This document shows, one piece after another, positions 21,243 to 42,929 of a stretch of DNA of 64,000 nucleotides. How positions within the stretch are numbered: position 1 is the first letter of the stretch; each line of letters starts with the position of its first letter. Location of the stretch: NCBI GenBank assembly GCA_963780225.1, contig CAWAAX010000026.1, positions 13,403-77,402 on the forward strand. Direction: 5' to 3'. The position numbers and the translations under genes were made by a program. The DNA comes from an uncultured bacterium (GTDB taxonomy: Bacteria; Edwardsbacteria; AC1; EtOH8). The notes beneath the pieces were generated by a model. That model worked only from the letters and a program-made list of their open reading frames with translations, was not told the origin of the DNA and ran no database searches.

Positions 21243-21715
21243 AGTTTACAATTTACAGTTTAAAAGTTTGTTTGAATAACGCAAGGAGGTTTGTATGGGT
21301 ACGTTCAGAAAGTTTGAGGACATTACCGCTTGGCAAAAAGCGCGCGAGTTGACAAAGTTGGTTTACGAAATCACTAAGGACGGAAGTTTTTCAAAGGATT
21401 TTGGCCTGCGAGATCAAATAAGAAGAGCCGCTGTTTCTATGATGTCCAACATTGCAGAAGGGTTTGACAGGGGCGGCAGAAAAGAATTTATTCAGTTTTT
21501 ATCAATAGCCAAAGGCTCCACTGGCGAGGTCAAAAGCCAATTGTATATCGCATTGGACCAAAATTACATTACCAAAGATTTATTCGATAAAACATTTTCC
21601 TTGGCAGAGGAAGTCAATCGTTTGATCTTTAGTTTGATAAAGTACCTGGGAAATACTGAAATTAAGGGAATAAAATATAAAGTTAACTGATTACAATAAC
21701 TGTAAATTGTAAACA
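21243..21715. mobile_element. Four-helix-bundle gene cassette (copy 2), flanked by inverted repeats
   Basis: AGTTTACAATTTACAG at 21243-21258 and its inverse CTGTAAATTGTAAAC at 21701-21715 bracket the 4HB ORF. A related GTTTACAATTTACG lies upstream of copy 1 at 19921. Confidence 0.4.
21295..21690 (+). CDS. Four-helix-bundle protein (23S rRNA IVS/Avd-like), copy 2
   Basis: 131 aa with ..KDFGLRDQIRRAAVSMMSNIAEGFDR..EFIQFLSIAKGSTGEVKSQL.., a paralogue of copy 1. Confidence 0.85.
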   Translation: MGTFRKFEDITAWQKARELTKLVYEITKDGSFSKDFGLRDQIRRAAVSMMSNIAEGFDRGGRKEFIQFLSIAKGSTGEVKSQLYIALDQNYITKDLFDKTFSLAEEVNRLIFSLIKYLGNTEIKGIKYKVN

Positions 21716-22387: not shown

Positions 22388-22750
22388 GTGAGTATGGAAT
22401 TGAAATTCGAGAAACTGGAAGTATGGCGGATATCGCTGGAATGCATAGATAAGGTCTATGCGCTTTTGGAAAAATATCCCCGGTCCGAAGAATATATCCT
22501 AAAACAGCAAGGCAAGCGCTCCATAACCTCGGTCTCTCTGAACATTGCCGAAGGCAGCTGCAAGCACACCCAAAGGGAATTTGCCTATTTTGTAAATATT
22601 TCCATAGGCTCCCTGGTGGAAACCCTGGCCAATCTGAAAATAGGTCTGCAAAGAAAATACATCACTGACGCAGACTTTAAAGGCATTGAGCCCTTGCTGG
22701 ATAAAATGTATTTCAAGCTGATGGCTCTGGAAAAGGCCCTGCGGAAATAG
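22388..22750 (+). CDS. Four-helix-bundle protein (23S rRNA IVS/Avd-like), copy 3 (more diverged)
   Basis: 120 aa with ..KRSITSVSLNIAEGSCKHTQREFAYFVNISIGSLVETLANL... Low GC. Confidence 0.8.
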   Translation: MSMELKFEKLEVWRISLECIDKVYALLEKYPRSEEYILKQQGKRSITSVSLNIAEGSCKHTQREFAYFVNISIGSLVETLANLKIGLQRKYITDADFKGIEPLLDKMYFKLMALEKALRK

Positions 22751-26015: not shown

Positions 26016-27176
26016 ATGAAGAAGATAACGGCAATTCTCTTAATGGCAGGTGCCCTGGCAACCATGGTGTTCTCGGGCTGCGGGCCGGGCGGCCAGCAGA
26101 TCAAGATCGGGGTGGCCGGGCCGCTGACCGGCGAGCAGGGCAAGGCCGGCCAGGACCTGCTGCACGGGGTGCAGCTGGCGGTCTCCGAGTGCAATGCCCG
26201 GGGCGGGGTGCTGGGCAAGCGGGTGGTGATCATCGCCGGGGACGACCGGGCCGATGAAAAGGAGGCCAATGCCATAGCCCAGCGACTGTGCGACCAGGGG
26301 GTGGCCGGAGTGGTGGGGCACTACAACAGCCACTGCTCCATCGCCGGCAGCCGGATCTACAACCAGAGGATGATCCCCCAGATCACGCCTTCGTCCACCA
26401 ACCCCAGGTTCACCCAGCAGGGGTTTGACAACGTGTTCCGGACCTGCGGCCGCGACGACCAGCAGGGCAGGATAGCCGCCGACTACGCCTTCAACGTCAT
26501 GAAGGTCAAGAAAGTGGCCATCTTCTCCGACGGCACCACCTATGGGCTGGGGCTGGCCGAAGAGTTCAAAAAATCAATTCTCCTTTACAACAAACCCAAG
26601 GCGGTGGAAGTGACCATAGTGGCCGACGCCCAGATCCAGATGATCACCGAAGGCAAGGCCCCGGACTACGGCCCGCTGCTGGATCCCTTGATCAGCTACC
26701 AGCCCGACCTTATCTATTTCGGCGGCAGTTACCCCGAAGGGGCCATGCTGATCCGGCAGATCAAGGAACGCCGGCTGGCGGCGGCCTTCATGTCCGGCGA
26801 CGCCATCGCCAATTCGGAGCTGATCAAGCGGGGCGGAGTGGCCACCGAGGGAATATACTTCACCTTCGGCCCGGCGGTGGAGGACATGCCCCAGGCCGGC
26901 AGGTTCTACGATTCCTTCAAGGCCCGCTACGGCGAGCTGGGGCCCTACTCGGTCTACGCCTACGATGCGGCCACCGTGCTGCTGAAGAGCATAGAACTGG
27001 CCGGGACCACTAGCGGGGATTCCCTGGTCAAGGTGATTCATTCCGCCAAGTTCGCCGGAGCCATGGGCGAGCTGGAGTTTGACGGGAACGGGGACATCAA
27101 GGCCGCACCCTACGTGCTGTGGACGGTGAAGGGCGGGGAGTTCAAACCGGTCAAGGCGGAGACCCCGTTACAATAG
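26016..27176 (+). CDS. Periplasmic substrate-binding protein, branched-chain amino acid ABC transporter (LivJ/LivK-like, type I PBP); a lipoprotein
   Basis: Signal peptide with Cys (MVFSGCGPG). GVAGPLTGEQGKAGQDLLHGVQLAVSECNARGGVLGKRVVIIAGDD is typical of type I PBPs. Confidence 0.75.
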   Translation: MKKITAILLMAGALATMVFSGCGPGGQQIKIGVAGPLTGEQGKAGQDLLHGVQLAVSECNARGGVLGKRVVIIAGDDRADEKEANAIAQRLCDQGVAGVVGHYNSHCSIAGSRIYNQRMIPQITPSSTNPRFTQQGFDNVFRTCGRDDQQGRIAADYAFNVMKVKKVAIFSDGTTYGLGLAEEFKKSILLYNKPKAVEVTIVADAQIQMITEGKAPDYGPLLDPLISYQPDLIYFGGSYPEGAMLIRQIKERRLAAAFMSGDAIANSELIKRGGVATEGIYFTFGPAVEDMPQAGRFYDSFKARYGELGPYSVYAYDAATVLLKSIELAGTTSGDSLVKVIHSAKFAGAMGELEFDGNGDIKAAPYVLWTVKGGEFKPVKAETPLQ

Positions 27177-27238
27177 CCACAAAGACACAAAAGCACCAAG
27201 GGTTAATTAATTTGTGTCTTGGTGTCTTAGTGGCAAAC
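27176..27238. promoter_or_regulatory. Second copy of the GCCACAAAGACAC...GTGTCTTAGTGGC palindrome, upstream of the NuoB-like gene
   Basis: GCCACAAAGACACAAAAGCACCAAGGGttaattaaTTTGTGTCTTGGTGTCTTAGTGGC. Confidence 0.4.
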
Positions 27239-27270
27239 TATTTTGATATTATAAGATTAAGAGTAAAAAG

Positions 27271-27753
27271 ATGTTCCTGAAAAAACTTTGCGCCAAGGCC
27301 TTCCCCAAGTCGCTGTGGATCTATCACGTCAACACCGGGTCCTGCAACGGCTGTGACATCGAGATCGTGGACGTGATCACCCCCTATTACGACGCCGAGC
27401 GCTTCGGGATCAAGCTGGCCGGAAGCCCCCGCCACGCCGACATCATGCTGGTGTCCGGGCCGGTGACCAGGCAGGCCCTGCCGTCCTTAAAGCGGGCCTA
27501 CGAGGCCATCCCCGACCCCAAGATCGTGATCGTGGTGGGCTCCTGCGGGGCCGGCGGCAACCTGTGGTTTGACACCTATAACGTCACCGGCGGGGTGGAC
27601 AAGGTGATCCCGGTCAACTACTACATCCCGGGCTGCCCGCCCCGGCCCGAGGCCATCCTCTACGGCGTGGCAGTGGCCCTGGGGCTGGCCCCCAAGAAGG
27701 TTAAGGGCGAGGAGTCGGTGGAAGGGCCGATAAGGGAGGGAATGTGGAAATGA
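27271..27753 (+). CDS. hyfI: [NiFe]-hydrogenase small subunit, NuoB-like (HyfI/HycG/EchC-type)
   Basis: Four Cys for the proximal 4Fe-4S cluster (SCNGCD, GSCGAGG, GCPPRP). 160 aa. Confidence 0.85.
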   Translation: MFLKKLCAKAFPKSLWIYHVNTGSCNGCDIEIVDVITPYYDAERFGIKLAGSPRHADIMLVSGPVTRQALPSLKRAYEAIPDPKIVIVVGSCGAGGNLWFDTYNVTGGVDKVIPVNYYIPGCPPRPEAILYGVAVALGLAPKKVKGEESVEGPIREGMWK

Positions 27754-28667
27754 AACAACTGAATGCAAAATGCAAAATGCAAATAGCAAAAGGCCAAGGG
27801 ATCCATTTTGGTAAATTTGCAATTTACACTTTAATATTTTCACTTTGCATTGTCGGCTTTGCCGGTTGCGGAAACATCTCCCGGGGCAGCCTCAGCCAGG
27901 AAGCGGTGAAGATGGCGGTGCTGCCGGCCTATTCCACCGCTTTGACCGGCCAAAAATACCTGCCGCTGCTTAACTATCTCTCCCGGGAGACCGGTTACGA
28001 GGTCCAGTACATCTGGGGGCAGAGTTACGCCGGGCTGGGCGCAGCCATCGAGACCTCGGGGGCGGACTTCGTGATCTGCGATCCCTTGTCCTATCTGACC
28101 CTGCAGAAGACCCACCGGGCCAGACCGCTGGTGATCAGCGCTGTGTCCCTTGGCCGGACCGAAACGCAGGGCCTGATCTTCGTCCCGCAGGGTTCGGACA
28201 TCGCCGGTCCTTCAGCCCTTAAAGGCAAATTAGTGGCCATAGCGTCCATGCAGTCCTCCGATGGTTTTTTATCCCAGGCCTGCTACCTTAGATCTCTGGG
28301 CCTTTTGCCGGGAAGGGATTACCGGCTGTTGATCTGCGGCACCATGGATGAAGTGGTCAAAAAAGTGGCCGAAGGCAAGGCCCAGGCAGGTTTCGGCGGA
28401 ACAGGAATTCTGGACCAGTTGATGGCCGAAAAGCTGGTCTCCCTGGCCAGCACCGATCCGGTGCCGGGCTGGCTGTGCCTGAGCCTGAAGGGCGATAATT
28501 ACGAGGTGGAGGAAAAACTGACCCAGGCTTTCCTGCGGCTCAGTCAGGAGAATCCTGAACAGAAAAAGATACTGGACGGGCTGGGGTATTACGGTTTTGC
28601 CAGCCCGCAAGGTGCAGATATCAACGGTCTGGCGGAAAAGGCCCGGAGTCTGAACGTTCCATTCTAA
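27744..28667 (+). CDS. Periplasmic binding protein, PhnD/SsuA-like (type II PBP) lipoprotein
   Basis: Signal peptide ending ..FAGCGN, then ..MAVLPAYSTALTGQKYLPLLNYLSRETGYEVQYIWGQSYAGLGAAIETSGADFVICDP.. Confidence 0.55.
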   Translation: MEMKQLNAKCKMQIAKGQGIHFGKFAIYTLIFSLCIVGFAGCGNISRGSLSQEAVKMAVLPAYSTALTGQKYLPLLNYLSRETGYEVQYIWGQSYAGLGAAIETSGADFVICDPLSYLTLQKTHRARPLVISAVSLGRTETQGLIFVPQGSDIAGPSALKGKLVAIASMQSSDGFLSQACYLRSLGLLPGRDYRLLICGTMDEVVKKVAEGKAQAGFGGTGILDQLMAEKLVSLASTDPVPGWLCLSLKGDNYEVEEKLTQAFLRLSQENPEQKKILDGLGYYGFASPQGADINGLAEKARSLNVPF

Positions 28668-28705
28668 AGTGATCCTAATATCCCGACCAATAACATAAAG
28701 ATGAT

Positions 28706-30493
28706 ATGAAACAGACCTTTACCATTTGCCCCCATTGCGGCTGCGGCTGCGGCCTTTATCTGGTTCAGCAGGATGGCCGGACCGGAGGAGTGACCGCCAG
28801 CCAGGAACACTATTTTTCGGCCGGGCAGCTTTGCGCCCGGGGCTGGACCGGTTATCAGTTGTTATGGTCGCCGCTCCGGATAAAGACCCCGCTCTACAAG
28901 AAGAACGGCGGGCTGGCTCCCATCGGCTACGACAAGGGGCTGGAGGCCGCGGCCAAGAAGCTCAGATCCATCAAGGAAAAGCACGGCCCCCAGAGCATCG
29001 GGGTCATCGCCTCCTCCCGGCTGACGGTGGAGGAAGCCCAGGCCCTGCGCTCGTTCGCCAAAGACATTCTGGAAACCCCGAATTGCGACAGCGCCGCCCG
29101 GCTTGGGTACCTGCCGATGGAATTCCCGAAAACAGCCGCCACCACTGACATTGCCGGAGCCGACCTGATCCTGGTGCTGGGCGCAAACCTGATGGAAGAG
29201 AACCCCATGCTGGGGGCCAGGGTGGTCTCGGCCTGCAAGCCTGAGGCCGACCGGCCCTATCAGTCGGCCGACCTGAACCACGTCATCGCCGGCAAGCCGG
29301 CCCGGCTGGCGGTGATGGACAGCCGCAAAAGCGCGCTGGCCGGTGCGGCGGAATTGTTCCTGAAGACCGTTCCCGGCAATGAGGCCGGGGCGCTGCTGGC
29401 CCTGCTTAAAGTATTGATCGAAAAATACCAGATGGAATCCAAGGATCCGGCCTTCCGCAAGGTCAAGGAAGCCTTGGCCAAGATGACCTGGGAGAACCTG
29501 CTGTCCAACACCGGGCTGGTGCTGCCGGGCCTGGAGCAGCTGGGGGCCATGATCGCCTCCGCCAAGGCTCCGATGTTGATCTTCGGCCGCAGCCTGTTCA
29601 CCGGCCACGATGCGGCGGCGGCCCGCTCGGCCCTGGCCGGCCTGTCGCTGCTTCTGCCGGAAAAACTTTCGGTGCTTCAGGCCGCCGCCGCCGCCAACGA
29701 CTGGGGGTGCGCCCGGATCCTGCATCCGGACAAGGGCCAAGGCTATCTGGAGATGATGGAATCATTAACCTCCGGGAAACTAAAAGCCCTGGTGCTGGTG
29801 GGCGAGGACCCCCTGAAGACGCTGGGCGGAAAAGAGGGGGTTTCCCAGGCCCTGGCCCAGGCCGAGCTGGTGGTGGCCTTCGATCATTTTGTCTCCGAGA
29901 GCCATCAGTACGCCGAAGCGGTATTCCCGCTGGCCCTGTCCTTTGAAAAGGAAGGCTCGTTCTGCAACCTGGACGGTAAAAGGCAGAAATTCGAGCAGGC
30001 GCTCAAGCCGGAATTTGAGATCAAATCCCTGGAGGATTCCTTGAAGGCCATGGCATCAGTGATCGGCGGAAAACTGGATCCCAAGGATGAACTTACCCAG
30101 CCGGCCAAGGCCGGGTGGGATGCGGCCTTCGATCTGTCCAAAGCGGCTCCCCAGGGCTTTGTGCTGGAACTGGGCACGGCCTATCCCCATCTTTACGGGG
30201 ACGACCAGCTGACCTTCAACAGCTATCACCTGACCCGCGAATTTGCAGGCAACTACGTGGAACTGCATCCCGATGACATCAAGGAACTGGGGGTCAGGGC
30301 GGGATGGAAGATCAATGTCACTTCAGCTGCCGGAAGCCTGGTGGCCACGGCCCGGGCCAATCCCGATCTGGTGAAAAAGACCGCCTTCATGCCGGTCCAC
30401 TTCGGCGGCAACCTGCTGGCCCCGGCCAAGCCCAACCACCACCTGAAGACCCCGCAGCTGAGGGGCATCGCGGTCAAGATAGAGAAGACCTGA
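28706..30493 (+). CDS. Molybdopterin-oxidoreductase family protein, FdhF (formate dehydrogenase H)-like, apparently without the catalytic Cys/Sec
   Basis: The N-terminal 4Fe-4S motif (CPHCGCGCG...LCARGW) aligns with FdhF as far as KTPL and IKEKHGPQSIG. At the position of FdhF's VCH/VUH the sequence reads NCDSAARLGY. At 595 aa it is shorter than FdhF (715 aa). Confidence 0.7.
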   Translation: MKQTFTICPHCGCGCGLYLVQQDGRTGGVTASQEHYFSAGQLCARGWTGYQLLWSPLRIKTPLYKKNGGLAPIGYDKGLEAAAKKLRSIKEKHGPQSIGVIASSRLTVEEAQALRSFAKDILETPNCDSAARLGYLPMEFPKTAATTDIAGADLILVLGANLMEENPMLGARVVSACKPEADRPYQSADLNHVIAGKPARLAVMDSRKSALAGAAELFLKTVPGNEAGALLALLKVLIEKYQMESKDPAFRKVKEALAKMTWENLLSNTGLVLPGLEQLGAMIASAKAPMLIFGRSLFTGHDAAAARSALAGLSLLLPEKLSVLQAAAAANDWGCARILHPDKGQGYLEMMESLTSGKLKALVLVGEDPLKTLGGKEGVSQALAQAELVVAFDHFVSESHQYAEAVFPLALSFEKEGSFCNLDGKRQKFEQALKPEFEIKSLEDSLKAMASVIGGKLDPKDELTQPAKAGWDAAFDLSKAAPQGFVLELGTAYPHLYGDDQLTFNSYHLTREFAGNYVELHPDDIKELGVRAGWKINVTSAAGSLVATARANPDLVKKTAFMPVHFGGNLLAPAKPNHHLKTPQLRGIAVKIEKT

Positions 30494-31155: not shown

Positions 31156-33120
31156 ATGAGTTCAAAGTTAAATCCGCAGGATAACTACCGGGCCACCCTG
31201 GCCTCCACCGGATATGTTCCGATCAAAGAGGCCACCCAGGCCACCTACGACGCCATCGGCTTCATGTCGGGGCTGGAGGTGCACCAGCAGCTGCTGACCG
31301 ACCAGAAGCTGTTCTGCCGCTGCCCGGCCGGACGTTTTCAGAAGTCAGACGACTACGACGCCGAGATCGTCCGCCACATGCGGCCCACCCTTTCGGAGCT
31401 GGGGGAATACGACGGCACCGCTTTGATGGAGTTCCGGACCCGGAAGAACATCGTCTACCGCATCAAGAGCCCCACCGCCTGCACCTACGAGGTGGACGAC
31501 ACCCCGCCCTTCCCCCTGAACCGCCAGGCGCTGGAGATCGCCATCGAGATAGCCCTGCTCTCCAAGCTGAACCTGGTGGGCGAGGTCCACATCGCCCGCA
31601 AGCAGTACCTGGACGGCAGCATCCCCACCGGGTTCCAGCGCACCGCCATCATCGGGGTGGAGGGCTCGATCCCGCTGAAGCACAAGAAGGTCCGCCTGAT
31701 CCAGCTGTCGCTGGAGGAGGACTCCTGCCGCGAGGTCTCGGACATCGGCCACCTCCGGATCTACCGCACCGACCGGCTGGGCATGCCGCTGATAGAGACC
31801 GTGACCTATCCCGACATGAAAAACCCGGACGAGGTGAAGGAGGCCTGCGACTACATCCGCTTTTTGAACCGCAGCACCGGCAAGGTCCGCACCGGCATCG
31901 GGGCGGCCCGCCAGGACGTCAACGTCTCCTGCACCGGCGGCACCCGGGTGGAACTGAAGGGGGTCTCCCACACCAAGTGGATACCGCTTTTGACCCACAA
32001 TGAATGCTTCCGCCAGTGGGCTTTGCTGAAGATCCGCGATCTGCTCAAGAATAAGGTGAAACAGCCCAAGGACTGGAAGATGGTTTCCGAGCCGCTGAAA
32101 TCCCTATCCGGGAAGCTGGAGAGCCCGCGGGCCAGGGAACTTTTCAGCAACGGGAACAAGGTGATGGCGGTGAACCTGCCGGGATTTCATGGCATCCTGT
32201 CGCATTTTACCCAGCCGGGTAAATGCTTCGCCGACGATTTCTCGGAACGGCTGAAGGTGATCGCCTGCATCGAGAGACCGAACATGACCAGCTCCGAGGC
32301 ACTGGAGCCGGTGCTTTCGGACAAAGACTGGGACCAGGTCCGGACCCTGCTCCGCTCCTCTGATGGCGACGCCCAGATAGTCTTCTGGGGGCCGGAGGCG
32401 GACATCAAGACCGGACTGGAGACCATCGACGAGCGATGCCGGCTGGCCTTTGCTGGGGTGCCCAACGAGACCAGAAAAACATTTGAGGACGGGACCACCA
32501 TCTTCGAACGGGTGCTGCCCGGGGCCGACCGGATGTACCCCGACACCGATTCCAAGCCCATCCCGCTGGAGGACTCCCGGATCGAGGAGATCAGGAAGAT
32601 GGTGCCCAGCGAGGTGGCCGACCGCTACCGGCAGTTGAAGGACTGGGGCGTGCCGGAGGATTGCTATACCTACATCTTTGTCCGGAACCTGTATCCGGTG
32701 ATCGAGAAGATAGTCAAAGAACTGGGACAGGATCCCAAGACCGTAGGGGGTGTTTTCGGGCATCTTTTGAAGAACATCGAGGGACACTACCAGAGGTCGC
32801 CGGATTTCTCGTACGACCGCATCTATGACCTGTACAAATACGTAAAGGATAGCAAGCTGGATACCGAGATAGTCAAAACCATGCTGCCGGTGGTGTACCA
32901 GTATCCCAAGATGGACTTTGATTCGGTGCTGGTGAACCTTGAATTCAAGCGGTTCTCCAAGGATGAAGTAGTTTCCAAGATCCCGTTCCTGAAAGATAAA
33001 TACAAGAGCATCAAGACATCTAAACTTCCTGTGGCCGAGAAACACTGGGTCATGGGACAACTGAGAAAAATGGCAGTAGGGAATATTCCTCTGAAAGAAT
33101 TGATGGGAAGCATTGGTTAG
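31156..33120 (+). CDS. gatE: Glutamyl-tRNA(Gln) amidotransferase subunit E (archaeal-type GatE)
   Basis: The N-terminus has ..GLEVHQQLLTDQKLFCRCPA.. and the GatB/E core, and the protein is 654 aa. The final ~50 codons are low GC, and an alternative C-terminus remnant lies at 34258-34413. Confidence 0.8.
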   Translation: MSSKLNPQDNYRATLASTGYVPIKEATQATYDAIGFMSGLEVHQQLLTDQKLFCRCPAGRFQKSDDYDAEIVRHMRPTLSELGEYDGTALMEFRTRKNIVYRIKSPTACTYEVDDTPPFPLNRQALEIAIEIALLSKLNLVGEVHIARKQYLDGSIPTGFQRTAIIGVEGSIPLKHKKVRLIQLSLEEDSCREVSDIGHLRIYRTDRLGMPLIETVTYPDMKNPDEVKEACDYIRFLNRSTGKVRTGIGAARQDVNVSCTGGTRVELKGVSHTKWIPLLTHNECFRQWALLKIRDLLKNKVKQPKDWKMVSEPLKSLSGKLESPRARELFSNGNKVMAVNLPGFHGILSHFTQPGKCFADDFSERLKVIACIERPNMTSSEALEPVLSDKDWDQVRTLLRSSDGDAQIVFWGPEADIKTGLETIDERCRLAFAGVPNETRKTFEDGTTIFERVLPGADRMYPDTDSKPIPLEDSRIEEIRKMVPSEVADRYRQLKDWGVPEDCYTYIFVRNLYPVIEKIVKELGQDPKTVGGVFGHLLKNIEGHYQRSPDFSYDRIYDLYKYVKDSKLDTEIVKTMLPVVYQYPKMDFDSVLVNLEFKRFSKDEVVSKIPFLKDKYKSIKTSKLPVAEKHWVMGQLRKMAVGNIPLKELMGSIG

Positions 33121-33152
33121 GGGTTAGCCGCCATTAAGATTGATAGATGAAC

Positions 33153-34220
33153 ATGAAAGATCAGCAAATCAAGGACAGGGGTTTGATTAAAACGCGCCAA
33201 CCCGAGAAAAACCTTTATGCCAAGATTCGAGCGATCATTGAGAAGGCGCGCGGCAATGTGGCGAGGGCTGTCAACACGGAAATGCTGGCGGCGTATTGAC
33301 AGGTTGGGAGAGAAATTGTGGAAGAGGAACAGCGCGGGAAGGTTCGCGCCGGTTACGGTGAAAAGGCATTAAGACGGATATCGGAAAAGCTGATGGCTGA
33401 TTTTGGAAAAGGCTTTGATGAGTCAAACCTGCGCAACATAAGGCAATTCTATCTGGCCTATCCAAAACGTGACGCACTGCGTCACGAATTAAGCTGGACA
33501 CATTACCGCATTCTAATGCGGGTGGAGAACCCCGGGGCGAGGTCTTTCTATGAAATTGAATGCGTTAAAAATAGCTGGTCTGCCCGTGAACTGGAACGTC
33601 AAAAAGGTTCTCTTTTGTTTGATCGGCTGGCTTTGAGCAAAGACAAAAAGGGCCTTATAAAACTGGCGCAAAAGGGGCAGGAGATCCAGAGCTACGCCGA
33701 CATGATAAAAGACCCCTATGTCTTGGAATTCACCGGGCTTTCCCCGCAGTCGAAGCTTTATGAAAGCTCCCTGGAACAAGCCCTGATAGATAACCTTTCC
33801 AGATTTTTGCTTGAATTGGGCAAGGGATTCACCGTTGTCGCCCGGCAAAAGAGGATTTCGCTGGATGGGGACCACTTCCATATCGATCTTGTTTTCTACA
33901 ACACCATTCTGAAATGCTATGTGATCATTGACTTAAAGATCGGCAAGCTGGCGCATCAGGATATCGGACAGATGCAGATGTATGTTAATTATTATGACAG
34001 GGAAGTCAGGCAAAACGACGACAATCCCACGGTGGGGCTTATTTTATGCGAGGATAAAAAAGACGCGGTTGTTCGTTACACTCTTTCCAAAGACAATAGG
34101 CAAATATTCGCATCGCGGTATAAATTGTATTTACCCAGCGAGAAGGAATTGCTGTGCGAATTAAGAAAGGACCGCCGCTTGCTGGAAGAATCCGGGCGGA
34201 CAGACAAACGGGTAAAATAA
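33153..34220 (+). pseudogene. DUF1016/YhcG-like PD-(D/E)XK nuclease-domain protein with an in-frame TGA at codon 49
   Basis: MKDQQIKDRG...NTEMLAAY then TGA (33297-33299) then QVGREIVEEEQRGK... The stop falls where family members have a conserved Trp (AAYWQVG). An alternative GTG start is at 33318. About 45% GC. Confidence 0.6.
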
Positions 34221-34257
34221 CAAACGGAATTGGATGGAAGCAATTCTCTAAGGGAAT

Positions 34258-34413
34258 ATACTTTACCAGATGCCGGGCCTGAATGAGAAGCACATGGGCA
34301 TCAGAACATCAAACCTACCGGAAGCCGAGAAACACTGGGTCATAGGGCAATTGATGAAGCCGGCGTTGGGGAACATTAAACTGGCAGATCTTTGGAACCT
34401 GATCAAAGCCTAA
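34258..34413 (+). other. Displaced duplicate of the gatE 3' end (last ~50 codons)
   Basis: It translates to ILYQMPGLNEKHMGIRTSNLPEAEKHWVIGQLMKPALGNIKLADLWNLIKA*, which aligns with the GatE C-terminus KIPFLKDKYKSIKTSKLPVAEKHWVMGQLRKMAVGNIPLKELMGSIG*. Confidence 0.65.
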
Positions 34414-34453
34414 TACGGTCAACCTGAAAACAGCAATTGAGAACCAGACGATA

Positions 34454-35839
34454 ATGAACGACGATTTCTTCCAAGGCTACAAAGGCGGGGGGCTGGAGGT
34501 CCTCAAGAAATTCAACGTCCGGGTGTGGGGACAGGCCGAGGTGCTTACCAGCCGCGGGCATTTCAAGGGCACGGTACTGCCCCGGTCGGAGAGCGACGAC
34601 GACCAGCACATAGTGCTGAAGATAGCCACCGGCTACAATGTGGGCATAGACATCGCCACCATCACCGGGATGACCGAGACCGGCTACAAGAAGGCCAACT
34701 ACAAGATCCCGGAGAAGGAGTTCCCCATCACCCCCGGCCTGCCCAAGGTAAAACTGCTGGGGACCGGGGGCACCATCGCCAGCCGGCTTGATTACCGCAC
34801 CGGCGCGGTGATCCCGGCCTTCACTCCGGGCGAGCTCTATGGCGCGGTGCCGGAGCTGGCCGACATCTGCAATTTGTCCACCGAAAAACTGTTCGCCGTC
34901 TTTAGTGAAAACATGGGGCCGGAGCAGTACAAGAAGCTGGCGGTGGCCATCGGCAAGGAGATCGAGAACGGGATCGACGGCATCGTGATCGGCCACGGCA
35001 CCGACACCCTGCATTACACCGCGGCCGCCCTGACCTACATGGTCCAGAACCCGCCGGTGCCCATCGTTTTGGTAGGCTCCCAGCGCTCCTCCGACCGCCC
35101 CAGCTCCGACGCCGCCCTGAACCTGATGCACGCCACTACCGCCGCCGGGCACGGGGACATCGCCGAGGTGATGGTCTGCATGTTCGGGCCCACCTCCGAC
35201 GAATACGGCTTTCTGCACCGGGGCACCCGGGTCCGCAAGATGCACTCCTCCTACCGTTCCACCTTCCGCACCATCGGGGACACCCCGCTGGCCACAGTTA
35301 CCCGCCAGGGGGTCAAGCCCATCAAGCAGGATTACCATCCCCGGCGCAAGGACCGCCAGGTCAAGATCATGCCCTACTTTGAGGAGAAGATAGGAATGAT
35401 CTACTATTACACCAACATGCAACCGGACATGATAGACTCCATGGTGGACAGCGGCTACAAGGGGATCATCATCATCGGCACCGGATTGGGGCACGTCAAC
35501 AAGCCGCTGTACCCGGCCATCGAACGGGCGGTGGCCAAGGGGGTCCACATCTTCATGACAGTGCAGACACTGTGGGGCTACGTCCACATGTTCGTCTATG
35601 ACACCGGGCGCGATCTGATGGCCAAGGGAGTGGTGCCGCTGGAGAACATGCTTCCCGAAGCCGCCTACATCAAGCTGGGCTGGGTGCTGGGACAGACCCA
35701 GGACCGGGAGGAAGTAAACCGGATGATGCTGGCGCCGGTCAGCGACGAGATTACCCCCCGGGAGCCCTATAACGGGTATCTGATCTATCAGGGCGGGGTA
35801 CCCGAGGTGGAGGAGTTCATCAGGAAGGTGCATAAGTAA
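34454..35839 (+). CDS. gatD: Glutamyl-tRNA(Gln) amidotransferase subunit D (archaeal-type GatD; asparaginase-like domain)
   Basis: Asparaginase-fold signature KLLGTGGTIASR, IVIGHGTDTLHYTAAAL, and 461 aa. Confidence 0.8.
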   Translation: MNDDFFQGYKGGGLEVLKKFNVRVWGQAEVLTSRGHFKGTVLPRSESDDDQHIVLKIATGYNVGIDIATITGMTETGYKKANYKIPEKEFPITPGLPKVKLLGTGGTIASRLDYRTGAVIPAFTPGELYGAVPELADICNLSTEKLFAVFSENMGPEQYKKLAVAIGKEIENGIDGIVIGHGTDTLHYTAAALTYMVQNPPVPIVLVGSQRSSDRPSSDAALNLMHATTAAGHGDIAEVMVCMFGPTSDEYGFLHRGTRVRKMHSSYRSTFRTIGDTPLATVTRQGVKPIKQDYHPRRKDRQVKIMPYFEEKIGMIYYYTNMQPDMIDSMVDSGYKGIIIIGTGLGHVNKPLYPAIERAVAKGVHIFMTVQTLWGYVHMFVYDTGRDLMAKGVVPLENMLPEAAYIKLGWVLGQTQDREEVNRMMLAPVSDEITPREPYNGYLIYQGGVPEVEEFIRKVHK

Positions 35840-36021: not shown

Positions 36022-38667
36022 ATGAAACTGACAAGATTCCAATGGTACCGGGCCGGGTTGATATTTTTGCTGGCGGTGCTGATCGCCGCCGGGCTGGTAC
36101 TGTTTAAGACCACCCGGCAGCTTGCGCTGACTGTGGATAACGGATCATCCAAACTGGAGATCCTGTCGGCCATAGGCCGGGTGCGCCTGCTGGCGCGGGA
36201 GATGGAAATGACCCGGCCGGCGCCCGGTACGCCGCAGGACGATCCGGCGGCCGTCCGCTACGGGAACACGGTCGAAAATGCCAGGGCGGAGATAACCGCA
36301 TTGGCCAGGCAGACGGCCGACTGGCCGGTGCAGTTGGAACGGGTCGCCTTGCTTAATACCCTGGTCCAGGATCAGGTCTATAAGATGACCCCAGTACTGC
36401 CTAAACCGGCGGCAGGCAAGGGAAAGGGTCTCGCCGGGATAAAGCCGGAAACGGTCCCCGGGCCGGATTTCAGCGGCATCAAGACCATTCTCAACCGCAT
36501 GGAGGAGGATGAGGGAAAGGTCGTTGCTTCATGGCGCAATAACCTGTGGAACTCTCTCCGGATGCTGGCTGTTGCGGTAGTAGTGATAGTGATCGCCGCC
36601 GGCATCGTCGCCGTGGTGGCCTATCTTCTGATGTTGATCGAATTCTCCCGGCGCCGGTCGACCGAGCGGCTGTTGCGGGAGAGCCAGCTTCGCTTCGGCC
36701 TGCTGATTGACGAAGCCATGGACTTCTCCCTGGTTGTGCTTGACGCCTCCGGCCGGATGGTCGACTGGAACCTGGGGGCGAAGCGGATGTTTGGATACAG
36801 CGCCGGCGAGGTCAGGCGCAAGCACTTCTCCAAACTCTTTCCTCAGGAGCAGGTTCAGCAGGGCCTCCCGGAAAGGCATCTGAAAGCGGCGATTAACAGC
36901 GGACAGGACCGCGACGAGGGGATTCTGATCCGCCACGATTCCGGATCTTTTCCGGTCCGGAAAGCGGTCTATGCTCTGCGGGATGACGCCGGCAGGCTGA
37001 GCGGCTTTGCCGCGGTGATCCAGGATATAACCGAAGAACAACATTCCCGGGAAGAAGTGGCCAAGCTCGGCCTGTCGCTGGAGAACTCGACCGATCTGGT
37101 AGCCATCACCACGGCCGATGGGATCATAGAACAAGTCAACCGGGCGCTGCTGGCGGCGACCGGATACGCCCTGGAGGAACTGTTGGGAAAGCCGCTGGAC
37201 TCTCTGCGGCCGGCCGGCTCCAAACCCAAGCCCCAAGATACGGAAGGACAGGCCTCGTTCATCCGCAAGAAGAACGGAGATCAGCTGCAGGTGTCGCAGA
37301 CCACGGCCCCGGTCATTGACAAAGCCGGGCGTACCACCCATCTGGTAGTCACGTCAAAGGATGTCACCGCCCAGAAACAGCTGGAGGTTAAATTATCTTT
37401 CCTGCATCAGCACGATCCGCTGACCGGCCTGTTCAACCGGAACTATTTCCAGGCCCAGGCCAAAGAGGAAATAGACCGGAGGACCGGCGGGAGCGCAATG
37501 CTGATCATCTGTATCGACCGCTTCCGGCAGATCAATGACGTTTTCGGCATCAATGCCGGAAACCTGGTGCTGATGCAGCTGGCCGAATGCCTGCGAAAAG
37601 AAGTGGGCCACCGGGGCGTGATAGGGCGCATGGGCAGCGACGAGTTCGGCATCGTCCTCCGGGACGTGCACGATCCAGAAGACGTGACCGCCATAGTTAT
37701 GGCCGTCAAGAAGCACGCCGCCCGGCGGGTGGCAGTCAACGGCCGCAAGCTGTTTCTGACCTTGTCAGCCGGCGCCTCGCTTCATCCCGACGACGGCATC
37801 GATTCCGAGACACTGCTGAAGAACGCCGATGTGGCTTTGGTCCATGCCAAATCCAGCGGATTGAACCAGTTCCGCATGTACTCGAACGAGATCAATAACC
37901 GGATGTCGGCCCTGATGTCCATGGAACAACAGCTGTTCGGCGCCCTTCAGAATAACGAATATACCGTCAGTTATCAGCCTTATTTCGAGCTGAACCACCG
38001 GCGGATCGCCGGGGCCGAGGCCCTGATCCGATGGGTCAACAGCGAACTGGGCACGGTCTCCCCCGACCGGTTCATCAAGGCCCTGGAGACCACCGGCCTG
38101 ATCATAGACGTCGGCAACTGGGTGCTTAAGGCGGCCTGCCTTCAGGCCAAGAAGATGGAAAGCACCAAGCACAGATTCCCGCTGTCGGTAAACCTGTCGC
38201 CGTCGCAGTTCCGTTACGACGGTTTGGTGGACACGGTCAAAGAAATAATAGGCGAAACCAACATCGACCCCCGGCTGCTGACCATGGAGGTTACCGAGAG
38301 CGTCTTTGTAGAGGACCTGGGTTTCGCCCAGTCGGTGCTGAAACAGCTGAAAAAAGTCGGAGTGGCCATATCCATAGACGACTTCGGCACCGGCTATTCA
38401 TCGCTGAGCTACCTCAAGAAGTTGCCGGTGGACGTTGTAAAAATAGACCAAACCTTTGTGCACGACGTTACCAGCGATCCCGACACCGCCTCCATCGTCA
38501 CTTCGATCACCAACATGGCCAAGAGCCTGGGCCTGAAGACCATCGCCGAAGGGGTGGAAACCGAGGAGCAGTGCAAGGTGCTGCGCCTGCTGCGATGCGA
38601 CATGGGGCAGGGGTATTTCTTCAGCCCGGCCATGAATGCGGTGGACTTTGAGAGGTCGTTGGTCTAA
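36022..38667 (+). CDS. Membrane sensor protein with PAS domains, a degenerate GGDEF (GSDEF) and an EAL domain (predicted c-di-GMP phosphodiesterase)
   Basis: N-terminal TM helices and two PAS domains. The GGDEF site reads RMGSDEFGIVL. The EAL motif AEALIRW and the downstream EAL-domain residues are intact. Confidence 0.85.
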   Translation: MKLTRFQWYRAGLIFLLAVLIAAGLVLFKTTRQLALTVDNGSSKLEILSAIGRVRLLAREMEMTRPAPGTPQDDPAAVRYGNTVENARAEITALARQTADWPVQLERVALLNTLVQDQVYKMTPVLPKPAAGKGKGLAGIKPETVPGPDFSGIKTILNRMEEDEGKVVASWRNNLWNSLRMLAVAVVVIVIAAGIVAVVAYLLMLIEFSRRRSTERLLRESQLRFGLLIDEAMDFSLVVLDASGRMVDWNLGAKRMFGYSAGEVRRKHFSKLFPQEQVQQGLPERHLKAAINSGQDRDEGILIRHDSGSFPVRKAVYALRDDAGRLSGFAAVIQDITEEQHSREEVAKLGLSLENSTDLVAITTADGIIEQVNRALLAATGYALEELLGKPLDSLRPAGSKPKPQDTEGQASFIRKKNGDQLQVSQTTAPVIDKAGRTTHLVVTSKDVTAQKQLEVKLSFLHQHDPLTGLFNRNYFQAQAKEEIDRRTGGSAMLIICIDRFRQINDVFGINAGNLVLMQLAECLRKEVGHRGVIGRMGSDEFGIVLRDVHDPEDVTAIVMAVKKHAARRVAVNGRKLFLTLSAGASLHPDDGIDSETLLKNADVALVHAKSSGLNQFRMYSNEINNRMSALMSMEQQLFGALQNNEYTVSYQPYFELNHRRIAGAEALIRWVNSELGTVSPDRFIKALETTGLIIDVGNWVLKAACLQAKKMESTKHRFPLSVNLSPSQFRYDGLVDTVKEIIGETNIDPRLLTMEVTESVFVEDLGFAQSVLKQLKKVGVAISIDDFGTGYSSLSYLKKLPVDVVKIDQTFVHDVTSDPDTASIVTSITNMAKSLGLKTIAEGVETEEQCKVLRLLRCDMGQGYFFSPAMNAVDFERSLV

Positions 38668-38739
38668 AACTGTCTGGTTGCATTGCTCATCTCCACTAAT
38701 GAAGTCATCTATATCAAGCTGGGCGGGATGATGTGGTTG

Positions 38740-38982
38740 GAGGAGTTCATAGAGAAGTTTCATCCGCCTACGCAGGACACCACGAGCTATGCCCGTGGGG
38801 CTCCATAAATGTACAAAGCCTCGTTAGCACGGGGCTTTTTTTATTTCCCTGAAGTCGTTTTAAAATATCTCCAATAAAGTGCTTGCTTAAAACAACTTAT
38901 TGATATAAAATATACTGTCAAACTCCATTACTACGTCTGCATAAAAAATCTTATAAAAATACCCCAAACGAGGAGGTATCTT
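38740..38982. repeat. Duplicate of the gatD 3' end, terminator and 5' leader module (compare 35790-36020)
   Basis: ..GGAGGAGTTCATAGAGAAGTTTCAT.., the terminator AGCCTCGTTAGCACGGGGCTTTTTTT and the AAAATATCTCCAATAAAGTGCTTGCTTAAAACAACTTATTGATATAAAATATACTGT segment parallel 35790-36020. Confidence 0.6.
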
Positions 38983-40653
38983 ATGCCGTCAGCCAGAAAA
39001 AAATCAGGGCTTTCGCCCGTCCGGCCCGCCAGGACGGCCTTGCTGCCCACCGCCAAGAGCGAGCTTTCCAGCCTTAAGATGAAACTCAAGGTGCTTCAGC
39101 GGGTCAACGAGATCGCCGCCAGCACCTTCGACGTCCAGCCACTGCTGGACCGGGCCATGGATTTGGTGACCGAGATCGCGCCCTCCGAGGCCGGGTCGCT
39201 GCTGCTGTTGTCCTCCGACCGCACCTACCTGAAATTCTCCATCGTCAAGGGGCCGGCCGCTCACAAGCTGGAGGGGCTGGAGATACCCATTGGGCAGGGC
39301 ATTGCCGGCTGGGTGGCCAAGACCGGGATCCCGCTGACCGTCAACGACGTTCAGAGCGAGCCCAAGTGGAAGAAGGAGATCGCCGATAACGTGGACTTTC
39401 CCACCCGCAGCATCCTTTGCGTCCCGCTAAAATCGAGGGCCGAGGTGATCGGCGTGGTGGAGCTGATCAATAAACTGCGGGACGAGGATTACAACGATGA
39501 CGACCTGGAGATCATAGAACTGTTAGGCGCCCATCTTTCCACCCTGATCGAGAACAGCCGGCTCTATTCCGAGGCCCGGGAGAAGGTGGAGAGGATCACC
39601 GCCATGGCCGAGACCAGCGCCCTGATCTCCTCCTCGCTGGATGTCAAGCGGGTGCTGGAGACGGTGATGAACGTGGCCAAGGACGTGATAGATGCCGAGG
39701 CCTCATCCATCTTCCTGTACGATGAGGAGAGGCACGAGTTCTTCTTTGAGATCGCCACCGGCGACGCCGGCGACGCGGTCAAGCAGATCCGAGTTCCCTG
39801 GGGCAAGGGGATGGTGGGCTGGGCGGCCGAGCACATGCAAACCCTTTTGATCCCTGACGTCACCAAGGACCCCCGGTTCTATTCCAAGGTAGACGAGAAA
39901 TCGAAATTTATCACCCGCAACGCCATCACCGTTCCGCTGAAACCCAAGAACAAACTGATCGGGGTGGCCCAGGTGCTCAATAAGAAAGGCGGGCTGTTCA
40001 CCCGCGAGGACGTGGAGCTGTTCGAGACCCTGGCCCGCCAGGCGGCGGTGGCCATCGAGAACGCCAGCCTTTATACCGACCTTCAGGAGCTGTTCCTTAA
40101 CTCCATCCGGACCGTGGTCAGCCTGATCGACGCCAAAGACGACTACACCGCCGGCCATTCCTCCCGGGTCACCAAGTATTCCATGATGATTGCCGACCAG
40201 CTGGGCTTTTCACCCGAGGACCGCAAGCGGCTGGAGCTGGCGGCCCTGCTCCACGACGTGGGCAAGATCGGGATGCCGGACGCCATCTTAAAGAAACCGT
40301 CGGGGCTGACCCCCGAGGAGTTCGCCATCGTCAAGGACCACCCCAACAAGGGGGCCGAGGCCCTGGAGCCGATCAAGCAAATGAAGGACATCATCCCCGG
40401 GGTGCGCCACCACCACGAGAAGCTGGACGGACGGGGCTACCCGGCCGGGCTGGCCGGCGACCAGGTGCCGATGGATGCCCAGATCATCTGCGTGGGGGAT
40501 TCCTACGACGCCATGAACTCCGACCGTCCCTACCGCAAGGGTTTGGGGATGGAGGAATCGGTCAGACGCCTGCGCCAGGATGCTGGCACCCAGTTCAATC
40601 CGGCCCTGGTGGAAGCATTTGTCAAAGCGCTGGAGAAGGAGAACAAAAAATGA
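38983..40653 (+). CDS. GAF-GAF-HD-GYP domain protein (c-di-GMP phosphodiesterase class)
   Basis: Two GAF domains, then the HD domain with HDVGKIG and HHEKLDGRGYPAGL (HD-GYP signature). Confidence 0.85.
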   Translation: MPSARKKSGLSPVRPARTALLPTAKSELSSLKMKLKVLQRVNEIAASTFDVQPLLDRAMDLVTEIAPSEAGSLLLLSSDRTYLKFSIVKGPAAHKLEGLEIPIGQGIAGWVAKTGIPLTVNDVQSEPKWKKEIADNVDFPTRSILCVPLKSRAEVIGVVELINKLRDEDYNDDDLEIIELLGAHLSTLIENSRLYSEAREKVERITAMAETSALISSSLDVKRVLETVMNVAKDVIDAEASSIFLYDEERHEFFFEIATGDAGDAVKQIRVPWGKGMVGWAAEHMQTLLIPDVTKDPRFYSKVDEKSKFITRNAITVPLKPKNKLIGVAQVLNKKGGLFTREDVELFETLARQAAVAIENASLYTDLQELFLNSIRTVVSLIDAKDDYTAGHSSRVTKYSMMIADQLGFSPEDRKRLELAALLHDVGKIGMPDAILKKPSGLTPEEFAIVKDHPNKGAEALEPIKQMKDIIPGVRHHHEKLDGRGYPAGLAGDQVPMDAQIICVGDSYDAMNSDRPYRKGLGMEESVRRLRQDAGTQFNPALVEAFVKALEKENKK

Positions 40654-42929
40654 GCAATGCAATGAGAAGCAAAAAGACCACCGGCGCATTGGTAGGAATC
40701 GGAGTTGTGTTCGCAGTGATTTTGTTGTCGAGGCTTTTGAATTTCTTTAACACAATGGAAAACAAGGCCTACGACCTACGGTGCAATCTCATGGTCGGTC
40801 CGGTTGGCGAACAGAACATCGACGACGTGGTAATTGTGGATATCGACGATGCATCACTGGCTCAGCTGGGGAGGTTCCAAAACTGGCCAAGGCTTTACCA
40901 CGCTAAGGTGGCGGATTATCTTGCTCAAGGCGGGGCAAAGGCGATCACTTTTGATATATATTTCACGGAAAGCGACAGCCTGAAACCCGAGATGGTGGAT
41001 TTTTTCGTGCAAACCAAAAAGGAAAATGTTGACGCCAGTCTGGCACAACTGCCGTCTCTCAAAATATCTTCAAACAGAACTTCTGAAGTAATATCAACGG
41101 TGCTTAACAATTGGGGATATGACAAAGAATTCAGTGAGGTCGCCCAGGCTGCGGGGAAAGTGTATTTCCCGTTAATATTCGTTACCTCTGGAACCGGTGA
41201 CACCATTGGAAAAGCAGATACGTCGATAATACAACACGGTTTCAAGTTCGAACCTGCAATAAGCCGGATATTTTCGGCTCTGGACTTTCAAGGAAACCCA
41301 ATTAATCCCGATTTGTTGCTGCCTGTCAGCCAACTAATGAGTGCGGCTAAAGGTACTGGCTATTATAATATCATGCCAGATATTGATGGTGTCACAAGGC
41401 GGCAAATGCTATTTATTACTTATGCCGGGACCTCATATCCTTCGCTTGATTTGCGCATTGTTATGGATGCCCTCGGGGTAAAACAGAATGAGGTAACAGT
41501 AGAACCCGGAAAATTTATTCGGCTGGGCGATAAACGAACCATACCGATTGACGATGACAATTGGATGCGCATCACTTATTTCGGATCATTCAAGAAATTC
41601 CGTTATATTTCATATGCTGACGTGTTGACTGAAAACGTGCCGGCCGAATATTTCAAAAACAAAATTGTACTTATCGGTACATCCGCGGCTGGCTTGATGG
41701 ACTTGCGGGTAGTGCCATTTTCCAATCAGTTTCCCGGACCGGAGATACATGCCAATATTATGGAGACATTGCTTACCGGCCGGTTTATCAACGCACTGCC
41801 GGAGTGGGTTAATCTCGCGATCCTTGTAATTACCGGTCTGTTAACAGTATTTATCTCCCTGCGATTCAAGCCGGTAAATGCCAGCCTGGTGCTGTTCGGG
41901 CTGGTAATTATATATTTTGCAGCCGCCATCATGCTATTCAACAAGGCACTTTTGTGGATAGAGGTTGTCCGGCCGCTGACCGTAATCCTGTTCACCAACA
42001 TGGCCATTTTGGGCTACCGCTACCTGACCGAGGAAAAACAGAAGGTCTGGATCAAGAACATGTTCCAGGGCTACATGTCCAAGGACCTGGTGGACAAGAT
42101 CATGGCCAACCCCGAGATGCTGCTGATGGGCGGCGACAAGAAGGAGGTCACCGTCTTCTTCTCCGACATCAAGGGCTTCTCCAGCTTCTCCGAGAAGCTG
42201 GGAACCCCGGAACGGCTGATCGCCCTGATCAACGAGTACCTGGGGGCCATGTCCGACGTGGTGCTGGAATACGGCGGCTACATCAGCAAATACGAGGGCG
42301 ACGCCATCATGGCCTTCTGGGGCGCACCCACCGACGATCCCAAGCATGCCGAGACCGCCATCAAGTGCGTCTGGGCCATGAACCAGCGCCTGCAGACGCT
42401 TAACGCCGACCTGGCCAAGCGCAGCATGCCCAATCTTTTCACCCGGTTCGGGCTTAACACCGGCCTGGTGACCGTGGGCAACGTGGGCTCGGAAAAGAAG
42501 AAGAGCTATACCGCCATGGGCGACTCCATCAACCTGGGCTCGCGGCTGGAGGGGGCCAACAAGGAATACGGCACGGCCATCATGATGTCGGAATTCACCT
42601 ACGCCAAGGTACAGGGCCTGTACCCGGTGCGGGAGCTGGACATGCTGAGGGTGGTGGGCAAGGAACAGCCGGTAAGGGTCTACGAACTACTGGGAATTTC
42701 CGAGGCCGACGTCAGCGAAAAGAAAAAGAAGGCGGTGGAGATATACCTGAAGGGCCTGGAGCTCTATCGTTCCAAGCAGTGGGACCAGGCCGAGGCCGTG
42801 TTCCGGCAGGCTTTGGAAGTGGATCCCGACGACGGGCCAAGCAAGACGTATATCGACCGCTGCGAGGACTTCAAGGTCCTGCCGCCGCCGGAGAACTGGG
42901 ACGGCGTGTTCGTTATGAAGACGAAATAG
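40650..42929 (+). CDS. CHASE2-domain class III adenylate/guanylate cyclase with C-terminal TPR
   Basis: Periplasmic CHASE2-like region bounded by TM helices. The cyclase core has FSDIKGFSSFSEKL and ...GDAIMAFWGAP.. Confidence 0.8.
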   Translation: MSNAMRSKKTTGALVGIGVVFAVILLSRLLNFFNTMENKAYDLRCNLMVGPVGEQNIDDVVIVDIDDASLAQLGRFQNWPRLYHAKVADYLAQGGAKAITFDIYFTESDSLKPEMVDFFVQTKKENVDASLAQLPSLKISSNRTSEVISTVLNNWGYDKEFSEVAQAAGKVYFPLIFVTSGTGDTIGKADTSIIQHGFKFEPAISRIFSALDFQGNPINPDLLLPVSQLMSAAKGTGYYNIMPDIDGVTRRQMLFITYAGTSYPSLDLRIVMDALGVKQNEVTVEPGKFIRLGDKRTIPIDDDNWMRITYFGSFKKFRYISYADVLTENVPAEYFKNKIVLIGTSAAGLMDLRVVPFSNQFPGPEIHANIMETLLTGRFINALPEWVNLAILVITGLLTVFISLRFKPVNASLVLFGLVIIYFAAAIMLFNKALLWIEVVRPLTVILFTNMAILGYRYLTEEKQKVWIKNMFQGYMSKDLVDKIMANPEMLLMGGDKKEVTVFFSDIKGFSSFSEKLGTPERLIALINEYLGAMSDVVLEYGGYISKYEGDAIMAFWGAPTDDPKHAETAIKCVWAMNQRLQTLNADLAKRSMPNLFTRFGLNTGLVTVGNVGSEKKKSYTAMGDSINLGSRLEGANKEYGTAIMMSEFTYAKVQGLYPVRELDMLRVVGKEQPVRVYELLGISEADVSEKKKKAVEIYLKGLELYRSKQWDQAEAVFRQALEVDPDDGPSKTYIDRCEDFKVLPPPENWDGVFVMKTK

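Follow-up and report, generated by a model that had tools for sequence, protein, structure and literature searches.

In a TA06 bacterium, the genes for subunits E and D of the Glu-tRNA(Gln) amidotransferase (gatE and gatD) are separated by a nuclease gene of the DUF1016/YhcG family and by a second, non-functional copy of the last ~60 gatE codons (34227–34413), referred to here as the remnant. The locus lies on contig CAWAAX010000026.1 (assembly GCA_963780225.1), within a stretch of 64,000 nucleotides that was analysed as a whole and is called the window; all positions are counted from its first letter. The nearest GatE proteins, 94–95% identical to that of the window, come from metagenome-assembled genomes (MAGs) of candidate division TA06 relatives (TA06/UBP2). 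Features were called from open reading frames (ORFs) and Pfam matches, and all lie on the plus strand; comparison loci are designated by L and a number.

31156–33120, plus strand: gatE, Glu-tRNA(Gln) amidotransferase subunit E, intact, 654 amino acids (Pfam GatB_N, E = 5e-45).
32939–33087, plus strand: left copy of a direct repeat, within functional gatE and native-like (72% identity to 34230–34377; 88–97% to the L083 allele).
33081–33120, plus strand: substituted last ~12 gatE codons and stop (IPLKELMGSIG, then the stop codon), from nucleotide identity and comparison of protein tails.
33121–33146, plus strand: 26-nt leader between the gatE stop and the DUF1016 start, belonging to the insert (common to L090 and L174, missing in empty alleles).
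33147–34220, plus strand: PD-(D/E)XK nuclease gene with DUF1016_N and YhcG_C domains and an in-frame TGA (from Pfam, frame reading and the intact orthologue P0121).
34227–34349, plus strand: 5' part of the remnant, a decayed gatE-tail fragment with a 1-nt deletion (88–91% to the L090 remnant; 59–80% to every gatE allele).
34350–34413, plus strand: 3' part of the remnant, the native empty-allele gatE end including the old stop (last 40 nt 84% identical to L001 and colinear with it).
34414–34453, plus strand: native gatE–gatD spacer, 40 nt (a 47-nt stretch reaching into gatD is identical to L001).
34454–35839, plus strand: gatD, subunit D, intact, 461 amino acids (Pfam GatD_N, Asparaginase and Asparaginase_C; 90–98% nucleotide identity to relatives).

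The direct repeat pairs 32939–33087 with 34230–34377 over 150 aligned nucleotides at 72% identity (E about 1e-17), and in translation the remnant aligns with the 50 C-terminal residues of GatE, with 60% identity to L001 (E = 3e-20) and 53% to the GatE of the window (E = 2e-15). Within this repeat, an identical 20-nt core, GCCGAGAAACACTGGGTCAT, is present at 33036–33055 and 34326–34345, where it falls on the best-conserved codons of the tail. The homology of the remnant begins at ~34227, the junction with the DUF1016 stop being 6 nt long, and the 1-nt deletion lies near 34254.

The two gatE ends are of different types. The closest alleles without an insert (L001, L084/85) end in ..KLAELW..IK, and the remnant, ending ..IKLADLWNLIKA, is of the same type (..GNIKLADLWNLIKA against ..GNLKLAELWNMIKD in L001). 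The working gatE ends in ..GNIPLKELMGSIG, a different tail type, resembling relatives that are 78–81% identical. This difference is confined to the last ~40 nt: up to ~33080 the tail is native-like (88–97% to L083), whereas 33081–33120 has 37–50% identity to L001, L084 and L083, 78% to L081/L082 and 75% to L090. GatE proteins that are 94–95% identical overall differ in their tails.

The remnant is a chimera, its 5' two-thirds being shared by descent with cassette-bearing sister loci and its 3' part being the local native gatE end. The first ~120 nt are 88–91% identical to the remnant of L090/L174, with the same junction to the DUF1016 stop, and only 59–80% identical to gatE alleles. By contrast, identity over the last 40 nt is 84% to L001 and 42–49% to most other alleles, and the remnant then runs directly into the spacer and gatD start of L001, the 47-nt identical stretch included. 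Past the ...EKHW(V/I)MGQ... codons, the window follows L001, whereas L090, L174 and L175 follow a decayed L083-type tail, which then leads into the TehB-like methyltransferase gene seen between gatE and gatD in L083. Because the 5' affinity is shared and the 3' continuations differ, a homologous crossover inside the remnant separates the arrangement in the window from that of the L090 type. The order gatE–DUF1016–remnant recurs in L090 and L175 (JGI) and in L174 (ENA), contigs from three other samples that were assembled independently, and is therefore not an assembly artefact. Dating of the insertion by the decay of the remnant was abandoned, functional gatE tails already differing by 10–30% between alleles. 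A search with a 110-residue GatE tail returned only fragments of a frameshift-rich assembly, one of which (L171) exposed an allele bearing a four-helix-bundle gene (described below).

These results bear on several proposals of the first-pass annotation, which had been made from the letters of the DNA alone. Its second gatE end is real (150 nt, 72%), flanks the insert as one arm of a direct repeat (32939–33087 against 34230–34377) and aligns to GatE better than random sequence would, but starts at ~34227 rather than at 34258 and carries the deletion near 34254. Its substitute C-terminus shrinks to the last ~12 codons, the rest up to ~33080 being native-like. That the downstream copy is the displaced original end is correct for the 3' part, which is of the type carried by the insert-free relatives and runs into the L001 spacer; the 5' part is shared by descent with the cassette-bearing sister alleles. 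A ~150-bp low-GC tail had further been taken as a mark of insertion, which does not hold: the low-GC span covers ~450 nt, and GC content at third codon positions (GC3) is 0.64–0.66 in the tail and 0.88 in the body of gatE alike in the window and in the insert-free L001 and L084. Low GC as a sign of a foreign gatE tail was rejected because the last 450 nt are low in GC and GC3 in all alleles, empty ones included. The low GC3 of 32670–33120 extends throughout the clade, being seen also in L083, L086, L081 and L027; long-term recombination with lower-GC alleles or functional constraint could account for it.

The gatE–gatD junction was compared across 89 loci with a gatE relative (80 GTDB species representatives and nine metagenome contigs of close relatives), in 47 of which the two genes are adjacent (gap ≤150 nt). 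Among close TA06 relatives with 77–95% identical GatE, the junction has at least six allelic states:

Empty: L001, L084/85.
Methyltransferase gene: L083.
DUF1016 gene, remnant and methyltransferase gene: L090, L174, L175.
DUF1016 gene and remnant: the window.
Unknown 204-aa gene: L086/87.
Four-helix-bundle '23S rRNA IVP' gene (TIGR02436): L088/89, L171.
GxxExxY/PDDEXK_3 gene (TIGR04256): L081, L082, L004.

A distant DUF1016 gene (30% identical) occupies the same junction in the Bacteroidetes MAG L018, with neither a duplication nor a replaced tail. Second gatE-tail copies were absent from the 80 GTDB loci, and neither flanking repeats nor a second tail were found at ten non-DUF1016 cassettes of the junction (methyltransferase, IVP, PDDEXK_3, unknown). 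The flanks in gatE and gatD show mosaic identity to differing relatives. The junction therefore displays what defines a hotspot of gene exchange: many alternative contents between the same core genes, an absence of mobility genes and mosaic flanks. Variability extends past gatD (36022–38667): a PAS-GGDEF-EAL gene separates gatD from a GAF-HD gene (38983–40653) in the window, L083 has nothing there, and two or three different genes are present in L084 and L086, among them one that faintly matches Y1 transposase. GatD/GatE, usually seen as an archaeal amidotransferase, is widespread in bacterial MAGs (L001–L080) of Bacteroidales, Lentimicrobiaceae, Ignavibacteria and TA06/UBP2, the genes being mostly adjacent and in the order gatE–gatD.

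Both domains of the DUF1016/YhcG family (PF17761 + PF06250) are present in the nuclease gene, with E = 1.4e-58 for YhcG_C (profile positions 2–151 of 157) and E = 7e-31 for DUF1016_N on the downstream ORF alone. The catalytic D...(D/E)-x-K residues are in place (HIDLVF, IIDLK), D235, D250 and K252 being invariant in 36 homologues. With a GC content of 0.47 against 0.61 for gatD, the gene is, as the first-pass annotation had recognized, a foreign PD-(D/E)XK nuclease gene of lower GC between gatE and gatD. It lacks an uninterrupted frame: a TGA at 33297–33299 stands in place of the invariant Trp of an AYWxIG motif, whereas the 97%-identical intact orthologue P0121 has G at 33299 and L090, L174 and L175 read TGG. 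Judged from its reading frame, the gene in the window appears to be a recent pseudogene or, at best, to encode a 300-aa truncated product. Between the window and L174, 13% of 4-fold degenerate sites in the DUF1016 gene differ, within the range of the host genes (12–16%), as compared with 1–3% of amino acids. The gene has therefore been co-inherited with its flanks, purifying selection has acted on it, and the stop codon is a recent change.

The intact orthologue matches the PADLOC profile PDC-S02 (E = 2e-148), by which the nuclease would belong to a candidate anti-phage (defence) family, one that PADLOC itself treats only as a candidate. Homologues number in the thousands; copies with 75–84% identity occur in Omnitrophota, Elusimicrobia, Firestonebacteria and Leptonema, homologues are carried by 522 plasmids and a few phages, and relatives at 55–79% identity lie in unrelated loci (radC/hsdR, cas1, engB and others). 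In the literature, the family is known as cargo of type I restriction-modification operons, integrative and conjugative elements (ICEs) and Rickettsiales amplified genetic elements (RAGEs), and is described as enriched beside the targets of programmed inversion; no description of DUF1016, GxxExxY or four-helix-bundle genes as self-mobile was found there. A sequence search of solved structures returned no match to the nuclease, and an AlphaFold model from a shallow alignment was unusable (mean predicted local distance difference test score 45).

We read the locus, with a probability of roughly 60%, as the scar of recombination at a hotspot of gene exchange, where a housekeeping gene underwent 'C-terminal displacement', and not as a self-integrating element. 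From the observed anatomy, allele series, mosaic remnant and selection pattern, we infer the following order of events and nature of the joints. Donor DNA from another TA06 gatE allele, comprising its last ~12 codons followed by the DUF1016/YhcG gene, would have been joined into a recipient gatE, with a homologous left joint within the gatE tail and an illegitimate right joint ~180 nt upstream of the old stop codon. Because the right joint would lie upstream of that stop, the old tail would have been moved downstream as a non-functional remnant and gatE would have stayed intact. The cassette, now flanked by gatE-tail sequence on both sides, would then have been shuffled among alleles by homologous recombination. 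In the lineage of the window, a crossover just after the ...EKHW(V/I)MGQ... codons would have linked the old remnant with an empty allele, from which the tail end, the spacer and gatD now follow; in the sister strains, the same remnant would have come to lead into the methyltransferase cassette. Purifying selection maintained the cargo until, in this genome, a recent TGG-to-TGA change knocked it out.

The multi-allelic junction, the mosaic remnant, the patchwork flanks in gatE and gatD, the co-inheritance of the DUF1016 gene with its flanks, the absence of an integrase and of conserved cassette ends, and the occurrence of relatives of the nuclease in unrelated contexts and on plasmids all support recombination. 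There is published precedent: displaced orphan 3' ends have been explained by homology-facilitated illegitimate recombination (PMC5361080), and hotspots driven by recombination in the flanking core genes have been described (PMC5635113). No integrase or transposase was found in the insert, DUF1016 being the only ORF with a Pfam domain in 33121–34226, and no integrase was found by Pfam among the neighbouring ORFs in the two spans screened (26016–30493 and 36022–42929). Conserved cassette termini or boundary motifs were not seen across 12 loci. A scan of 32800–34600 returned no sigma-70-like promoter, such a scan being uninformative for this phylum, and neither the repeats nor the region held tRNA genes or known RNA families, save for one tRNA-Gln in L164, ~100 nt downstream of its second repeat copy.

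C-terminal displacement with orphan 3' ends has been described for Rhs, CdiA and type VI secretion system (T6SS) effector loci (Kirchberger et al. 2017, PMC5361080, and, cited there, Jackson et al. 2009, BMC Genomics 10:584). As in those loci, a gene whose 5' part is constant gains a new 3' coding end and a linked downstream gene, the former 3' end survives farther downstream as a fragment with some of the conserved region, and events are serial, with two cassettes in L090/L174 and three pyrE ends at a further locus, L135. The mechanism proposed there, homologous anchoring combined with an illegitimate joint, would also apply here. By contrast, the gene affected here is single-copy and has a housekeeping role in tRNA-dependent glutamine formation rather than being a polymorphic toxin, the tip consists of 12 ordinary GatE codons and brings no new functional (toxin) domain, and the cargo is an unrelated DUF1016 nuclease rather than an immunity gene. 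The locus likewise resembles the horizontal-transfer hotspots that homologous recombination in the core genes on either side maintains (Oliveira et al. 2017, PMC5635113), as well as the core defence hotspots (PMC10250203), in that the same core pair brackets many small accessory genes, without mobility genes and with mosaic flanks, and in that one cargo gene is of a candidate defence family. It differs from these hotspots in lying inside a two-gene operon for one enzyme, in that each state is a single small gene and in that one allele has a duplicated gene end.

Several points weigh against displacement by recombination. Homology-facilitated illegitimate recombination usually deletes recipient DNA and does not duplicate it, so that the duplication of 140–180 nt requires an extra step, which could be sister-chromosome repair or the single-crossover integration of a circle with one hybrid repeat. 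Duplications are enriched around DUF1016 genes generally (see below), and none was found at the ten non-DUF1016 cassettes of the junction, which may hint that the nuclease itself contributes. The donor allele was not found, and the age and source of the 5' part of the remnant cannot be fixed because gatE tails differ by as much between alleles as noted above (10–30%).

The enrichment emerged from a survey of 64 testable metagenome loci with DUF1016 relatives, with ORFs as controls. Significant direct repeats on both sides were present at 8 of the 64 loci in the DNA comparison, against 3 of 180 control ORFs (Fisher p = 0.0013), and at 9 of 64 against 3 of 178 in the translated comparison (p = 0.0004). 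The repeats are the ends of neighbouring genes, range from 27 to 220 nt and share no common end motif; young duplications at other DUF1016 loci are 97–100% identical, and ~85% of DUF1016 loci have no flanking repeat. At L106, the last 100 nt of argS are repeated at the DUF1016 stop, the copy being 89% identical and frameshifted. At L135 (2190–4530), the 3' end of pyrE and its terminator occur three times around the DUF1016 gene and a 104-aa ORF without a Pfam match, in the order functional pyrE end, DUF1016, orphan copy, 104-aa ORF, second orphan copy. The copy beside DUF1016 is 85% identical and the outer one 94%, and both orphan copies share a terminator variant missing from the functional end, a pattern that echoes the mosaic remnant of the window. 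At L136 and L146, the 5' ends of hsdR and hsdS, respectively, are duplicated. L101 (1–4292) is a further case of a duplicated gene end about a small accessory block: the 5' part of a gene on the minus strand (N-terminus MNIR.ITSVYFSPTGTT...) is present twice, and the two copies enclose a DUF1016 gene together with a small toxin-antitoxin-like gene, with extra repeats of 41 nt (98% identical) and 69 nt.

This pattern at DUF1016 loci, with its independent cases at argS, pyrE, hsdR and hsdS, is one ground for a homing-like alternative, in which the DUF1016 enzyme would cut alleles that lack the cassette, close to where the target gene ends, and the cassette would be copied in from the carrier allele during repair; the substituted and decayed tails would protect the carrier, and a duplication would arise where homology exists on one side of the break only. 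The PD-(D/E)XK nuclease, whose D...D-x-K is invariant across homologues, the insert of almost exactly one ORF, the distant DUF1016 gene at the gatE–gatD junction of L018 and the spread of 75–84% identical copies over several phyla fit this idea as well. Free-standing homing endonuclease genes such as the T4 seg and mob genes are likewise single nuclease ORFs in or beside a conserved gene, with carrier alleles whose sequence differs nearby from that of empty alleles, and I-Ssp6803I is a homing enzyme of the PD-(D/E)XK type. Homing does not normally leave a duplication, however, and close homologues at the same site in different genomes, by which homing would be recognized, were not found: relatives at 55–79% identity lie in unrelated loci and thus share no conserved target, only the 30%-identical gene of L018 shares the junction, and that locus has neither duplication nor replaced tail. 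Moreover, most DUF1016 loci (~85%) are repeat-free, the lengths of the repeats vary from 27 to 220 nt without a common end motif, and the family is more familiar as a passenger of restriction-modification loci, plasmids and ICEs and as a candidate defence gene. We therefore consider homing unlikely. Broader still, and distinctly improbable in our view, would be the idea that DUF1016/YhcG nucleases are autonomous single-gene cassettes that enter the ends of housekeeping or defence genes; if this were true, they would keep the target intact by creating or carrying end duplications of 27–220 nt, and the gatE, argS and pyrE cases would be footprints of a nuclease-only mobile element without integrase or transposase. 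It is the pattern of duplications flanking DUF1016 genes that could prove to be new.

A local origin, in which a tandem duplication of the gatE tail received the nuclease gene between its copies and the copies diverged in place, without any foreign end, is very unlikely. The left repeat copy is indeed native-like up to ~33080, the window itself contains a 1,313-nt tandem duplication in nuoCD, and young duplications at other DUF1016 loci are nearly identical (97–100%). Yet here it is the selected copy that has a tail type unlike that of the nearest relatives and the unselected copy that keeps theirs, the opposite of what divergence in place would produce; the 12 terminal codons of the functional copy have their homologues in the tails of less closely related alleles (78% for L081/L082), and the 5' and 3' parts of the remnant differ strongly in affinity. 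Least probable of all is site-specific integration, by which the repeats would be attL and attR of a small or decayed element that is moved by a recombinase encoded elsewhere and that targets and restores the 3' end of gatE. Streptococcal ICEs at rplL, rpsI and guaA integrate into gene 3' ends and restore them, so elements with such a habit exist at protein-coding genes; as with these and with islands at tRNA and tmRNA genes, the insert is flanked by repeats of the target's 3' end, and a replacement coding end keeps the gene intact; the repeats here contain the identical 20-nt core. That core lies on the best-conserved coding part of the gatE tail, however, and may reflect no more than coding conservation; the repeats extend over a long stretch and have diverged (72% identity), the insert is 1.1 kb and a single gene, the insert and the Pfam-checked neighbours (26016–30493, 36022–42929) hold no integrase, other cassettes at the junction have no repeats, and the repeats at other DUF1016 loci share no motif.

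The first-pass annotation had favoured just such an integrating or homing element. The search that it suggested, for gene-end duplications at other YhcG-like genes, gave a positive result (9 of 64 against 3 of 178), and the outcome that it described is partly right. The mechanism is not upheld: no integrase lies in the insert, termini are not conserved, relatives of the nuclease occupy unrelated loci, and other small genes fill the same junction in sister genomes without duplication.

Small genes of the families seen at the gatE–gatD junction occur elsewhere in the window. Three paralogous four-helix-bundle '23S rRNA IVP'/TIGR02436-like genes (19943–20329, 21295–21690 and 22388–22750), of the family found at the junction in L088 and L171, each lie between consecutive genes of the NADH dehydrogenase operon (nuoCD, nuoH, nuoI, nuoJ/K), and no repeats were found flanking them. 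A GxxExxY/PDDEXK_3 gene (~9437–9820), another small hitchhiker of a junction family, lies between a 4Fe-4S protein gene (8170–9255) and an FAD/NAD oxidoreductase gene (9888–10724). The nuo duplication (16890–18202 and 18203–19515; 1,313 nt, 96.8% identical, gapless, direct and in tandem) places a truncated 5' copy of the fused nuoC-nuoD (ORF 16892–18208) before the full gene, its unit not being a multiple of three.

The gatE–gatD locus of the window fits best as a variant, carrying a degraded candidate defence nuclease, of the recombination-driven displacement already known from hotspots. On this reading, the architecture of polymorphic toxins, in which a new end and its cargo displace an old end, is also possible at an essential translation gene, and a gap inside a two-gene enzyme operon can act as a population-level slot for small accessory genes. 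For annotation, orphan gene-tail fragments beside DUF1016 genes should be read as insertion scars and not as new small genes. Finally, the finding provides a testable lead on a very common and uncharacterised nuclease family, whose genes have duplicated ends of neighbouring genes on both sides unusually often.

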